The translations under genes and the position numbers were made by a program. From Candidatus Pelearchaeum maunauluense (GTDB lineage: Archaea; Thermoproteota; Nitrososphaeria_A; Caldarchaeales; Caldarchaeaceae): DNA of 64,000 nucleotides. Shown here piece after piece: positions 269 through 5,941 of the stretch. Within the stretch, counting starts at the first letter, position 1. The number at the start of each line of letters is the position of its first letter. The notes under the pieces were generated by a model, which was not told the DNA's origin, did no database searches, and saw only the letters and a program-made list of their open reading frames with translations. The stretch is taken from NCBI GenBank assembly GCA_030059675.1, contig JANVYQ010000004.1:1-64000 (forward strand), read 5' to 3'.

Positions 269-967
269 ATGATGGTCACCGTTGAGGAGGCTCTCGCGCG
301 TTTCTTCAAGATAGGCGCTATCCTCGCCCTGTTGGGGGCTCTCCACATGCTCACGCTCCTCCTCCCCTGGTATGTAGTCTCTCCCGACACGCTGGTCCAG
401 GTCTACATTAGCGGCTACAACGTCCTTGAAACTCTAGCCCTCTCAGTTGTAGGCGGAATCCTGGCAGGCATGGGCTTGCTAATATCCAGCTTCATGGGTA
501 GGGTGAGGACTGTGAGGCTTGTCCTAACCTCGCTGGCGATTGCCGGCGGAGCCTTGGCAGCGCTCTCGCCGACATACTTGCTGATGGTTAAGATACCCCG
601 CCTACAGGTGGCTGGCAATATTGAGTGGGGTCTCTTTGCCTCGCTCTTCACAGCCCTCGCGCTCCTCGCTGTAGGAATACTGGCAGCGCTCACACGTCTC
701 TCAGAACCAAGATACACATACAGCTTCACGGGCACAGTAGCAAGCACGATGCCCCAGCTAGAAGAGACAAGCGTAGGCGAGACAACATTTGAGCCAGCAG
801 AGAGCGTAGAAGAAGGGGCTATGTGCACAATCTGCTACCAAGACGTATCAGCTGACGACGCCGTAAAATGCGCTTCATGCGGCATGGTTTATCACGGGGG
901 ATGCATAGATGAGTGGGTTAGCCTTAACGGTAACTGCCCCAACTGTAAGAGTGTGGTGAAGTCCTAA
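269..967 (+). CDS. Membrane protein (about 4 TM helices) with C-terminal C4HC3 RING-type zinc finger
   Basis: Four hydrophobic segments, acidic/Thr-rich linker, then CTIC-x11-CASC-x4-HGGC-IDEW-x6-CPNC. Confidence 0.8.
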   Translation: MMVTVEEALARFFKIGAILALLGALHMLTLLLPWYVVSPDTLVQVYISGYNVLETLALSVVGGILAGMGLLISSFMGRVRTVRLVLTSLAIAGGALAALSPTYLLMVKIPRLQVAGNIEWGLFASLFTALALLAVGILAALTRLSEPRYTYSFTGTVASTMPQLEETSVGETTFEPAESVEEGAMCTICYQDVSADDAVKCASCGMVYHGGCIDEWVSLNGNCPNCKSVVKS

Positions 968-3377: not shown

Positions 3378-3926
3378 TTGGATAGGATTACGGCGGAGCT
3401 TATCCAAGACAGCTTAGTGGTTTGGGATATTGATGCTGGTAGGCGTCTCTTCAGAGAGGGGTTCTACGGTAAGCCGCTGGGGATTCCGAAGCCGCGCGAC
3501 GCTAATTTTGACGCGCCGCTCATACTAGACCTGATAGAGGCCACATACCTAGTTGAGCGCGGCTTGCTGCGGGTGGTCAAGGATGGTGCAGAACTTACGC
3601 TTGAGGAGCTGCTGGAGTATGGTGAGCGGAACTATGAGCGCTTTGCGGACAAGTATCTGGTTTACCGTGACCTCCGCAAGAGAGGGTTTATTATAACACC
3701 AGGGATAAAGTTCGGGAGCGACTTCGCCGCGTATAAGCATGGGCCGGGGATAGACCACGCGCCGTTCATCATACAGGTTAGAAGCGGCAACGACCCGCTC
3801 TCCGCGCTGGATATAGTGCGCTCAGGCAGGCTGGCGACATCTGTAAGGAAACATTTCACGATAGCCGTTCCAGACCACATCAACAAGAAGGTAACCTACC
3901 TAGTCTTTGAGTGGTGGAAAGCATAG
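3378..3926 (+). CDS. endA: tRNA-intron endonuclease, catalytic subunit
   Basis: YLVYRDLRKRG, GIKFGSDFAAY..GPGIDH and RLATSVRK carry the catalytic Y/H/K triad. Confidence 0.95.
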   Translation: MDRITAELIQDSLVVWDIDAGRRLFREGFYGKPLGIPKPRDANFDAPLILDLIEATYLVERGLLRVVKDGAELTLEELLEYGERNYERFADKYLVYRDLRKRGFIITPGIKFGSDFAAYKHGPGIDHAPFIIQVRSGNDPLSALDIVRSGRLATSVRKHFTIAVPDHINKKVTYLVFEWWKA

Positions 3927-4601
3927 CTACAAGCGCCTGTATAGGACGTGGATTAGTTTCCCACGCCTCTTCATATCAACCAGCTCCTGCCCCATATCCC
4001 GCGCCCACTTGAGCATATCCACCTCTGTGGCTGGGTCTTGGGTAACTACGTGAAGCGTCTCACCAGGCCTGACGAACTTGAAGAAATAATCCCCAACCTT
4101 CGTCAGTATCATCTCGCAGGTCTCGGCTAGGGCTGTTATCCTATGGTCTGGATAGCTCTTTAGGCAGACTATCCCCTCGCGGTCTATCTTCTCCTCATAC
4201 CGCCTTATCGCGTCTTCTCCAGTTAGTAGGCCTGCTAGCTTGGGGTCGCTGTGGGCTTTGAGCTCCACCACCCAGCCATCGCCGTATGGGTCTTCAGCAA
4301 CCTTACCAGGCTCGGCCACGACGCCCTCGTTTATTCTAGCTATCTCGCCCTGGAGAGGAGCCCACAATGAGCCTGTGAAGCGCTGGGATTCAAGCAACGC
4401 CAGCGGCTGTCCCTTCTTGACAGCAGTCCCGACGGGCCTGGGCTTGATATTGCTCAGCTTCCCAACCTTGAAGAGTAGCGGAACAGCCACGCCGACGCGG
4501 TAAGTAAAGCCGCCCAGCGGCCTGAGCCACACATCATTATCAACATCATAGAAAAGCTCACTGGGCAGTGGACAGTCCTCAAGCTTAGAACTTCCCCGCA
4601 T
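3927..4601 (-). CDS. Fusion of a GcvH-like lipoyl-carrier fold (lipoyl Lys replaced by Arg) and a C-terminal TusA/SirA-like domain
   Basis: N-terminal LYD..N.VW, ES-QR-F..L.AP..GEI..IN and EDPYGDGW (H-protein pattern); C-terminal ALAETCEMIL..PGETLHVVTQDPATEVDMLKWARDMGQELV (TusA pattern); ATG 4601 avoids overlap with the rhodanese. Confidence 0.8.
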   Translation of the reverse strand: MRGSSKLEDCPLPSELFYDVDNDVWLRPLGGFTYRVGVAVPLLFKVGKLSNIKPRPVGTAVKKGQPLALLESQRFTGSLWAPLQGEIARINEGVVAEPGKVAEDPYGDGWVVELKAHSDPKLAGLLTGEDAIRRYEEKIDREGIVCLKSYPDHRITALAETCEMILTKVGDYFFKFVRPGETLHVVTQDPATEVDMLKWARDMGQELVDMKRRGKLIHVLYRRL

Positions 4602-4669
4602 AGCCAGCCGCAGAAATAAATTGGAGAAAAGGAATGTTTTGTACGTATCCCCGCTAGTCAAAGAATTGT

Positions 4670-5524
4670 TTAGGCCTGTTCCTTCTCTATCGGGAAGCGT
4701 ACCAGGTTGCCCCACTCACTCCAGCTACCGTCGTAGACCTTAACGTTCTTGTATCCCAGTAGGTACTTCAGGACAAACCATGTATGGCTGGCGCGCTCAC
4801 CTATCCTACAGTAGGTTATTACTTCCTTGTCTGGCGTTACTCCACGCGGTTCGTAGAGTTGTTTTAGCTCCTCAACTGGTTTGAATGTCCCGTCATCCCT
4901 GACAGCCTGTCCCCAGGGTATGTTCACCGCCCCAGGTATATGGCCGCCGCGCTGTGCAGCCTCTTCTGGATACTCTGGCGGCGCGGTTATTTCACCCCTA
5001 TACTCCGCGGGGGAGCGTACATCAACCAGAGCCGCGTTGGGGTTGGCCACCTTAATCTTCAGCAGGTCTGTGAGGAATATCCTATTCTCCAGGTTTATGC
5101 GCGGCACTTTATAGCTCGTGGCTGGGTATGAGGGAGTCTCCTTACTCAGCTCGCCGCCTGAGTCAATCCACTTCTTCCTCCCGCCGTTTAGAAGCCTAAC
5201 ATCACGGTGGTCGTAGAGTTTAAAGACCCAGAAGGCGAAAGCGGCGAACCAGTTATTGTAGTCCCCATAGAGGATTACGGTAGTGTCGTTGGCAATCCCA
5301 AGACGCGACATCAACCTCTCAAATGCCTCAGGCCCTATGACGTCGCGCTGAACAGGGTCATTCATGTCCTTCCTCCAGTCTATCAAGACAGCGCCTGGTA
5401 TGTGGCCCTGCTCATATGCGAGGCGCGGGTCGTAATCTACTTCAACAATCCTCGTGTTTGGCGCGTTTAGGTTCTTCTGGAGCCAGTCAATATCTACTAA
5501 AGCTTCTGGATGTGCGTAGTTCAT
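4670..5524 (-). CDS. Tandem-domain rhodanese / thiosulfate sulfurtransferase (CysA/SseA type)
   Basis: GHIPGA twice, active-site YCRIGERAS, C-terminal YDGSWSEWGN. Confidence 0.95.
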   Translation of the reverse strand: MNYAHPEALVDIDWLQKNLNAPNTRIVEVDYDPRLAYEQGHIPGAVLIDWRKDMNDPVQRDVIGPEAFERLMSRLGIANDTTVILYGDYNNWFAAFAFWVFKLYDHRDVRLLNGGRKKWIDSGGELSKETPSYPATSYKVPRINLENRIFLTDLLKIKVANPNAALVDVRSPAEYRGEITAPPEYPEEAAQRGGHIPGAVNIPWGQAVRDDGTFKPVEELKQLYEPRGVTPDKEVITYCRIGERASHTWFVLKYLLGYKNVKVYDGSWSEWGNLVRFPIEKEQA

Positions 5525-5617: not shown

Positions 5618-5941
5618 TCAGCGCAGAACACAACGCCTACCGTCAAACTCGCAGGAGCTATACCTAACCATAATCCAGCCCCTATCCTGGCTCTCGCCTC
5701 CGTCAACAGGCTGCTCCGCGATGAGGCCGTAGCTCGCTACGTTAATCACTAGCTCCTCCGCGAGGAACTCCTCCTCAAGGAAGAAGCGGTTACCCATGAA
5801 GTAGCCCAGCCCAACAAGCCACTTGGCTGGCTCATCACCGTAACGCTTCATATAGCTAATACGCGCGACAGGAGAGCGGTTCTCCAATACGTGCACCGCC
5901 TCGCGCGGAAGGCGGACGCTGCTCTAGTGGTAAATGGGCAT
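5618..5941 (-). pseudogene. Small hypothetical protein gene with in-frame TAG after codon 5 (or a 92-aa protein from GTG 5896)
   Basis: ATG 5941 reads MPIYH*SSVRLPREAVHVLEN..., in frame with the 5618-5896 ORF; TAG at 5924-5926. Confidence 0.5.

Follow-up and report, generated by a model that had tools for sequence, protein, structure and literature searches.

The window analysed here, the 64,000 nucleotides (nt) of contig JANVYQ010000004.1 from Candidatus Pelearchaeum maunauluense, encodes a two-domain rhodanese of the thiosulfate sulfurtransferase (TST) type and, directly behind it on the same strand, a protein of 224 amino acids in which an H-protein domain of the LbpA type is joined to a TusA-like domain. 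We propose that the rhodanese and the fusion protein form a cysteine-based persulfide relay pair in which the H-fold serves mainly for docking, and we give this reading a probability of roughly 55%. The proposal starts from what is directly supported: both folds, the descent of the H-domain from LbpA, cysteines that are nearly invariant, two genes that are linked and co-occur, and a predicted complex. The parts are all of known kinds, and we found no paper describing the combination of an LbpA-type and a diverged TusA domain in one protein beside a TST-type rhodanese, with no sHdr genes detected in the genome or close to the loci sampled. Our search for GcvH-TusA or LbpA-TusA fusions covered open-access papers and preprints and returned none, and the supplementary tables of Cao 2018 and Tanabe 2024 may list some. 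An earlier reading of this DNA, made from the sequence only, had called the pair a possibly undescribed module; this holds in that no study of it was found, but the architecture itself is widespread in archaea and has been named automatically in databases.

The rhodanese and the fusion protein

The features of the gene pair are as follows, with positions given in the window.

4673 to 5524, minus strand: two-domain TST-type rhodanese, 284 amino acids (open reading frame and Pfam); stop codon at 4670 to 4672
4793 to 4810, minus strand: codons of the rhodanese active-site loop C239-R-I-G-E-R244 (read from the sequence)
4602 to 4669, minus strand: spacer of 68 nt between the rhodanese stop codon and the ATG of the fusion (read from the sequence)
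3930 to 4601, minus strand: LbpA-like/TusA-like fusion, 224 amino acids (translation, Pfam and AlphaFold2 (AF2) model); stop codon at 3927 to 3929
4158 to 4586, minus strand: H-protein fold domain of the LbpA type, residues about 6 to 148, with the former lipoyl hairpin and both LbpA cysteines (Foldseek and tree)
4572 to 4574, minus strand: codon of Cys10, the N-terminal LbpA-type cysteine (Cys in 120/121 fusions)
4380 to 4391, minus strand: codons of E71-S72-Q73-R74, the hairpin that bears the lipoyl-lysine in GcvH and LbpA, with Arg here
4164 to 4166, minus strand: codon of Cys146, the C-terminal LbpA-type cysteine, at the junction of the two domains (Cys in 120/121 fusions)
3930 to 4157, minus strand: TusA-fold domain, residues about 149 to 224 (Foldseek and phmmer)
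4116 to 4118, minus strand: codon of Cys162, the cysteine at the TusA position, in TCEMI and not in CPxP (Cys in 121/121 fusions)

The sequence-only reading had described a tandem rhodanese with a CRIGER loop, followed on the same strand by a 224-residue protein, and both open reading frames (ORFs) are indeed present. The 284-residue protein matched the Pfam Rhodanese family in two stretches (E value 4.9e-40), and its sole cysteine, C239, lies inside CRIGER (residues 239 to 244). The Thermus rhodanese 1UAR matched it at an E value of 4.8e-116 over residues 1 to 282, and mycobacterial thiosulfate sulfurtransferases matched at about 1e-94. Tandem domains and a loop of the CRxGx[R/T] type in the C-terminal domain, the motif being that given in the part of PMC11094781 available to us, place the protein among the TST-type two-domain rhodaneses. 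In the alignment, C239, R240, I241, G242, E243 and R244 were fixed in 32/32 orthologues associated with a fusion, and the loop was also fixed in the 25 orthologues from fusion-less loci, save for a change of G242 to Ala in four.

The reading frame of the fusion is open from position 4715; because its homologues begin at the ATG at 4601, we place the start there, which gives 224 residues. Both ORFs can be taken as real genes and not chance ORFs, since homologues of the fusion reach an E value of 1e-137 and the rhodanese matches 1UAR so closely. The spacing of the two genes in related Caldarchaeales loci ranges from a 13-nt overlap to a 66-nt gap. A promoter and terminator scan of the locus returned counts at chance level, the consensus used being bacterial and the host an archaeon.

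Pfam recognised the N-terminal part of the fusion as GCV_H (E value 1.3e-21) and the C-terminal part as TusA at an E value of 7.3e-5 and 23 bits, which is under the gathering cut-off of 28.6 bits. Scores against the NCBIfam models were also below their cut-offs, with 18.4 bits for NF001423 (cut-off 78) and, for the GcvH models, 54.3 bits for TIGR00527 (cut-off 115.85) and 77.5 bits for NF002270 (cut-off 117). The AF2 model, built on a 33-row alignment, is a rigid two-domain body with a confidence (pLDDT) of 95.3 and a predicted template modelling score (pTM) of 0.88. In Foldseek, the residues up to about 130 matched GcvH structures with template modelling (TM) scores of 0.87 to 0.91, among them 1onl_A (E value 7e-13). 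Thus, the barrel-sandwich fold of GcvH is present, while the ESxK lipoyl-lysine is absent and the curated cut-offs are not reached. The hairpin reads ESQR, as opposed to ESVK in the canonical GcvH of the same genome, and judged by these residues the window fusion cannot carry lipoate at the usual site. The claim of an H-protein pattern lacking the usual lipoylation site was therefore well founded.

The C-terminal 75 or so residues matched E. coli TusA (3lvj_C) with an E value of 6e-6 and a TM score of 0.89, and the superposition gave a root-mean-square deviation of 1.1 Å over 74 columns at 32% identity. Other TusA-type structures, 3lvk_B, 1dcj and 3hz7, were also matched, and phmmer linked residues 147 to 216 to a TusA in the PDB at an E value of 2e-4. 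Exactly three cysteines occur in the protein, C10 (DCPLP), C146 (IVCLK) and C162 (TCEMI), as the sequence-only reading had it. The last of these, which opens a helix of residues 162 to 176 in the model, aligns with the CPYP cysteine of the genome's canonical TusA. Proline follows it (position 163) in only 5 of 121 fusions, and the motif is mostly EC[AS]A across the family, with CPGP or CPET retained in a few members. The Foldseek match, the alignment of Cys162 and these residual CPGP and CPET members indicate that the C-terminal domain has the fold of TusA but a motif that has diverged. It has the two-layer alpha/beta fold of TusA and a cysteine at the N terminus of helix 1; it has CEMI in place of CPxP, and its score lies under the cut-off.

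LbpA ancestry of the H-domain

The sequence-only reading had named the H-domain after GcvH; alignment and phylogeny point instead to LbpA. Among 1.8 billion representatives, the closest matches that are not fusions were proteins of about 145 to 150 amino acids with an N-terminal cysteine, a C-terminal cysteine and an ESGKW hairpin, and they come from Aquificota, a Sulfobacillus relative and Thermoprotei. One Hydrogenobacter copy lies in a cluster with the order hdrA-like, hypothetical, hdrC-like, hdrB-like (CCG), GCV_H, DsrE, GCV_H and radical-SAM, which is an sHdr cluster. In the part of Cao 2018 (eLife, PMC6067878) available to us, two strictly conserved cysteines, one near each terminus, set LbpA apart from GcvH, the lipoyl-lysine is strictly conserved in the LbpA alignments, and the cysteine pair coexists with lipoate.

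A maximum likelihood (ML) tree was built from 71 H-domains; it is unrooted, and its sample is biased in that the comparison rows were drawn from matches to the fusion. Fifty-four rows fell on one side, comprising 30 fusions, both LbpA copies of that sHdr cluster, 16 two-cysteine H proteins and 6 others, and the remaining 17 H proteins, the GcvH of this genome among them, were set apart with support of 95/96. All 30 sampled fusions formed a single clade (96/92). The fusion H-domain thus shares with LbpA the two cysteines and the grouping away from GcvH, and we consider it to be of the LbpA type. Two other LbpA hallmarks are missing: the strictly conserved lipoyl-lysine and, judged by the neighbour clusters shared among the fusion loci, a place near shdr genes that come with their own lipoate ligase and LipS1/S2.

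C10 and C146 align with the cysteines of the stand-alone two-cysteine H proteins and are, on this alignment, the inherited ancestral LbpA pair; therefore, they did not arise to replace a lost lipoyl arm. The suggestion that the cysteine residues took over from the lipoate arm does not agree with this, since the same pair coexists with lipoate in LbpA. According to the available part of a preprint (bioRxiv 10.64898/2026.10.01.755906), the LbpA pair lies at disulfide distance in models, mutation of Cys7/Cys145 in Thioalkalivibrio LbpA2 left lipoylation unaffected, and ligase recognition is the only role excluded for the pair. Stand-alone H proteins that match the fusion profile at positions 4 to 148 (E value about 2e-41) are encoded at G057:C6:58347-58781 and G222:C6:20092-20526, and because the match spans those positions we regard them as LbpA-like. 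Some of the genomes in the same family as the window hold such a stand-alone copy; this genome does not.

Distribution, conservation and the lipoyl position

A search of 5.8 billion clusters returned 9 close relatives of the fusion, with E values down to 1e-137, and close relatives are encoded at 11 genome loci labelled Caldarchaeum, Pelearchaeum or Nitrososphaerota. About 35 remoter full-length relatives, at 25 to 34% identity, were found among the 1.8 billion representatives, and a scan of genome loci with a 13-row sub-alignment returned 340 loci encoding relatives of the fusion. The best 80 of these 340, together with the 11 Caldarchaeales loci, made up the set of 91 loci used for neighbourhood analysis; the labels of the 80 were Bathyarchaeia, Nitrososphaerales, Thermoplasmata or 'Methanobacteriota', Methanomassiliicoccales and, once, Nitrosopumilales. 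Sequence comparison thus indicates one fusion clade across Caldarchaeales, Nitrososphaerales, Bathyarchaeia and Thermoplasmatota. Database names for its members are 'hypothetical', 'glycine cleavage system H protein' and 'sulfurtransferase TusA family protein', and the ESM Atlas holds several clusters bearing GCV_H plus TusA. A triple fusion with a rhodanese was not seen among proteins of 393 to 2000 amino acids at E <= 1e-5, which is weak evidence; the ten longer H-domain matches carried GCV_H alone or with a response-regulator domain, and no rhodanese.

Conservation was counted over 121 distinct fusion sequences. The three cysteines are nearly invariant (C10 and C146 in 120 each, C162 in all), W25 and W110 are invariant, and H218 is retained in 114. 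Position 74, where LbpA carries its lipoyl-lysine, holds Lys in 58, Arg in 55, Thr in 5 and Asn, Ile and Val in one each. The two main residues occur within every clade: 18 Lys and 18 Arg in Nitrososphaerales, 4 and 4 in Bathyarchaeia, 18 Lys, 4 Arg and 3 Thr in Thermoplasmatota, and 4 Lys, 7 Arg and 1 Asn in Caldarchaeales. Because Lys and Arg exchange freely, this position is not an obligatory lipoylation site, and lipoylation is probably not the conserved function of the family. The LbpA-type domain of the fusion appears to have lost the lipoyl-lysine repeatedly while keeping the cysteine pair. The rest of the hairpin is still conserved (E71 in 108, S72 in 95 and G77 in 101 of the 121), which suggests another use for it. 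Of the conservation that the sequence-only reading proposed to check, that of the cysteines was borne out and that of the Arg was not. More broadly, that reading fared well where it could have failed: the C-terminal domain has a TusA fold, the cysteines are conserved, the Lys is kept in only about half of the members, and none of the sampled loci places a fusion homologue among gcv or sHdr genes.

Linkage and co-occurrence with the rhodanese

An orthologue of the rhodanese (about 57 to 97% identity) was encoded within 4 kb of the fusion in 65 of the 91 loci, at a distance of no more than 200 nt in 58. In Caldarchaeales it lies directly upstream of the fusion and on the same strand (11/11 loci), whereas in 54 of the 80 loci from other lineages it lies downstream on the opposite strand, convergent with the fusion (about 57 to 65% identity; gap of at most 200 nt in 47). 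Beyond the rhodanese, no neighbour of the fusion was conserved past single lineages. Of 401 genomes sampled from the phylum, 33 encoded a full-length fusion, and the rhodanese was present at E <= 1e-60 in all 33, three of the matches being partial and the two genes lying on different contigs in some genomes. The link between rhodanese and fusion that had been drawn from the window alone is thus backed by conserved adjacency, by co-occurrence and by the predicted complex described below. One genome bin labelled Nitrososphaeraceae contains two separate fusion and rhodanese pairs (loci L059 and L065).

Two kinds of genes related to tRNA flank the fusion. A tRNA-splicing endonuclease EndA (window 3378 to 3926, plus strand) is convergent with it in Caldarchaeales, and a Sua5/YrdC-like gene, read from the sequence (for example, L076:4759-5409), flanks it in 11 Nitrososphaeraceae loci. 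These neighbours may be there by chance or may hint at a link with tRNA modification.

Predicted complex

A complex of the two proteins was predicted with 32-row alignments for both chains and compared with three controls. The rhodanese-fusion pair scored 0.76, and the best of the controls scored 0.00; the mark applied to this score was reached by 58 of 80 solved complexes and by 2 of 110 mismatched pairs, although with our own alignments these counts are only a rough guide. The runs shared at least 94% of contacts, and the pLDDT of the partner was at least 88. On the fusion, the modelled interface comprises residues 21, 45-46, 53, 55, 62, 64-66, 69, 71, 73-78 and 80 of the H-domain and residues 153, 172, 175 and 176 of the TusA domain; on the rhodanese, it comprises residues 32, 35-36, 39-40, 88, 116-117, 120-121, 123-126, 128, 179, 183-184 and 186. 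The model supports docking of the H-domain on the rhodanese through the former lipoyl hairpin and its flanks, which agrees with the alternative offered in the sequence-only reading, that the H-fold might act as a docking module.

Several rhodanese residues in this interface differ between orthologues that accompany a fusion and the 25 from fusion-less loci. Gly40 is found in 32/32 of the former, as against Trp in 17 and Gly in 8 of the latter; Lys117 in 32/32, as against Thr in 17, Lys in 5 and Ser in 3; Ile or Leu120 in 32/32, as against Ala in 17, Glu in 5 and Ile in 3; and Lys128 in 31/32, as against a mixture. The majority residue of the fusion-associated set was found in the fusion-less rhodaneses at a share of 0.45 at the interface and 0.62 elsewhere, a difference to which shared descent may contribute.

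Relatives without the fusion

The rhodanese was also examined in 25 fusion-less loci from five families. A small TusA-like ORF adjoins it in 18 of the 25 (16 of one kind and 2 of another), and the partner ORFs are as follows.

L186:2691-2939 (minus strand), L185:2717-2995 (minus strand), L187:4029-4295 (plus strand) and 13 loci among L191-L206: ORF of 80 to 95 amino acids
L188:2773-2934 (minus strand) and L204:1785-1910 (minus strand): TusA-like ORF with a KCGMP motif, 3' of the rhodanese
L184:2719-3030 (minus strand) and L207-L210: conserved ORF of about 103 amino acids directly 3' of the rhodanese, in 5/5 loci of family f5

In Sulfolobus acidocaldarius and Saccharolobus solfataricus, the ORF of 80 to 95 amino acids is labelled 'hypothetical'; it has one conserved cysteine and adjoins the rhodanese orthologue in 16 of the 25 Thermoproteota loci. 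Its AF2 model, built from only 5 sequences, has a pLDDT of 89.6, and its best match was the SirA/TusA-type structure 3hz7 (E value 6e-4, TM score 0.76), followed by 3lvj_C. The KCGMP ORFs, found in 2 of the 25 loci, are 37 to 42% identical to the C-terminal domain of the fusion and may resemble its unfused ancestor. No Pfam family matched the ORF of family f5, whose last residues are ...LTCPDD; its product may be a different type of cysteine-bearing partner. No small partner ORF was seen beside the rhodanese in 2 of the 25 loci. Because TusA-like partners occur in fusion-less loci, the pairing of the rhodanese with a small TusA-like protein looks older than the fusion, and the fusion looks like such a small partner to which an LbpA-derived domain was added.

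Genome context

The host genome is 94% complete, and its genome-wide family searches covered CCG, DsrE, TusA, GCV_H and BPL_LplA_LipB. The canonical GcvH, with ESVK, is encoded 86 kb away on the same contig, outside the window. A canonical TusA gene stands beside a DsrE-like gene on contig C5, these being the only other TusA and DsrE-like genes in the genome; by eye, this pair adjoins 2-oxoacid:ferredoxin oxidoreductase genes, and no hdr genes are present there. Proteins of the BPL_LplA_LipB family are also encoded, their matches lying outside the window, as do the only CCG domains, which belong to one 677-residue Nitrate_red_gam-Fer4-CCG protein and two LUD-Fer4-CCG proteins. With these five queries, no sHdr-like set was found in the genome. 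An sHdr system was considered here and rejected, as the CCG proteins are of other types and no hdr genes lie at the C5 site. The remark that gcv, lipoate-ligase and sHdr genes are missing nearby is in line with a Pfam search of the six ORFs between 2637 and 7492, which detected none, gcvP/T/L not having been searched as families. Likewise, neighbour clusters shared by 6 or more of the 91 fusion loci contained no sHdr, sLpl or LipS genes.

Two further ORFs of the window were noted. A 92-residue ORF without a Pfam family (5618 to 5896, minus strand) lies 5' of the rhodanese and is kept at the same place in L003 (92%) and L004 (55%). At 269 to 967 (plus strand), a 232-residue predicted membrane protein carries a C-terminal Cys/His-rich RING-like finger (CTIC...CASC...H..C...CPNC) and is kept in two related loci at 94% and 45% identity.

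A possible persulfide relay and alternative explanations

Sulfur transfer itself, its direction, the role of each cysteine and the end use of the relay are what we infer, in the following form. Cys239 of the rhodanese would form a persulfide, and the LbpA-derived H-fold domain would dock on the rhodanese by way of its former lipoyl hairpin (E71...R74). The TusA-like domain would then carry sulfane sulfur on Cys162, and the Cys10/Cys146 pair would hand it on or resolve it, for example by release of sulfide with formation of a disulfide. The relay may serve assimilation of thiosulfate or sulfane sulfur, detoxification, or supply to a thio-cofactor or to tRNA thiolation. A more specific version, in which the fusion is the physiological acceptor of the TST-type rhodanese and an all-protein substitute for dihydrolipoate, with the hairpin docking, Cys162 accepting and Cys10/Cys146 resolving, is tentative, and we consider it doubtful. 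If it were true, aerobic archaea, including ammonia oxidisers of soil, would obtain sulfide from thiosulfate or persulfides without sHdr; the role of the LbpA cysteine pair would be explained, and it would also be shown that LbpA and TusA work in direct contact in sulfur oxidisers.

Several points weigh against the persulfide relay. Neither Cys239 of the rhodanese nor Cys162 of the fusion lies in the predicted interface, and therefore the modelled pose is not competent for transfer. The TusA scores of the fusion in Pfam and NCBIfam are under their cut-offs. No rhodanese was found within 4 kb in 26 of the 91 fusion loci, labelled Thermoplasmatota (18), Nitrososphaerales (6), Bathyarchaeia (1) and unspecified (1); about 20 of these have enough flanking sequence to show one, and 5 have less than 900 nt downstream. 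The rhodanese is present in 111 of the 401 sampled genomes, 78 of which have no fusion, and thus it does not need the fusion. Because the genes are convergent in most lineages, they do not form one operon there. In addition, the sampled genomes are related and do not count as separate cases, and common ancestry may account for part of both the adjacency and the interface signature.

It has to be asked, then, whether the adjacency is simply inherited gene order, with another donor such as a cysteine desulfurase loading the fusion, which would feed tRNA thiolation or molybdenum-cofactor synthesis. E. coli TusA feeds both of these pathways. The convergent arrangement in 54 of 65 linked loci, the absence of linkage in 26 of 91, the neighbours related to tRNA (EndA in Caldarchaeales and the Sua5/YrdC-like gene in 11 loci) and a rhodanese far more widespread than the fusion would all be expected under this explanation. 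However, the linkage persists across two gene orders and two phyla, the rhodanese occurs in 33/33 fusion genomes, a TusA-like gene stands at the same place in lineages without the fusion, and the complex score of 0.76 against 0.00, with partner-specific interface residues, is hard to reconcile with mere synteny; we regard the explanation as unlikely. Another view would make Cys10, Cys146 and Cys162, perhaps with His218, the ligands of a metal or Fe-S site that locks the two domains together, the protein then serving in structure, sensing or electron transfer and not as a persulfide carrier. A sulfurtransferase as linked neighbour is better explained by sulfur traffic than by such a site, Cys162 sits exactly at the persulfide position of TusA, and Cys10 and Cys146 come from LbpA, in whose models they lie at disulfide distance without a third ligand. 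Even with three near-invariant cysteines, a histidine kept in 114/121 members, a rigid modelled body (pTM 0.88) with Cys146 at the domain junction, and loss of CPxP in most members (Pro163 in 5/121) speaking for it, a metal site seems distinctly unlikely.

The 58 of 121 members with Lys, in an ES/EG-x-K context, raise the question of whether they are working lipoate carriers of the LbpA type for an oxidoreductase, the Arg forms being degenerate or regulatory copies. Nesting of the H-domain within LbpA and the BPL_LplA_LipB proteins of the genome are compatible with this. Yet Lys and Arg alternate within every clade, with Thr, Asn, Ile and Val also seen, at a position that is strictly conserved as Lys in the LbpA alignments in the available part of PMC6067878, and the remaining conserved residues are equally conserved in Lys and Arg members. 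Moreover, no sHdr, sLpl or LipS was found among the neighbour clusters in at least 6 of 91 loci, and the CCG domains of the genome occur only in the Nitrate_red_gam-Fer4-CCG and LUD-Fer4-CCG proteins. We judge this explanation to be very unlikely. The persulfide relay pair, with the H-fold as docking module, is the reading that we prefer.

Relation to known systems and significance

Compared with LbpA as described in the available part of Cao 2018 (PMC6067878), the fusion shares the two cysteines and the side of the tree (95/96). It differs in having Arg in the window copy and Lys and Arg about equally in the family, where the LbpA lipoyl-lysine is strictly conserved, in bearing a TusA domain, and in having no shdr, sLpl or LipS genes nearby (with the CCG query run genome-wide). 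With GcvH it shares the fold, but it is without the lipoyl-lysine, scores 54 to 78 bits against cut-offs of 116 to 117 bits and falls on the LbpA side of the tree. With E. coli TusA (3lvj/3lvk/1dcj) it shares the fold and a cysteine at the same start of helix 1, whereas its TusA is a domain of a larger protein with TCEMI or EC[AS]A in place of CPxP. The available part of Tanabe 2024 (Protein Sci, PMC11094781) reports that a rhodanese, Rhd442, and TusA exchange sulfur and that TusA from Aquifex co-purifies with LbpA. In the rhodanese-TusA(-DsrE) sets of that work, as far as its available part describes them, the gene of a rhodanese likewise neighbours that of a TusA-type carrier. The rhodaneses of those sets have one domain and belong to shdr or dsr clusters; the one here is of the two-domain 1UAR/mycobacterial TST type, no DsrE or sHdr genes accompany the window pair, and LbpA and TusA are joined in one chain.

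The lipoate site of this family is often lost and its cysteines never, beside a conserved rhodanese, and this bears on the cooperation of LbpA and TusA as well as on the acceptors of rhodaneses. The fusion points to direct contact between the two and to a role of the LbpA cysteine pair that does not depend on lipoate. Rhodaneses are ubiquitous, and to our knowledge a natural acceptor has been identified for few of them; the window pair offers a simple system of two proteins and four cysteines for biochemistry. The Nitrososphaerales, which are among the hosts of the fusion, are not sulfur oxidisers as far as we know. The sulfur supply of abundant soil archaea (Nitrososphaerales, Bathyarchaeia and Thermoplasmatota) and of hot-spring Caldarchaeales may be touched by this pair.

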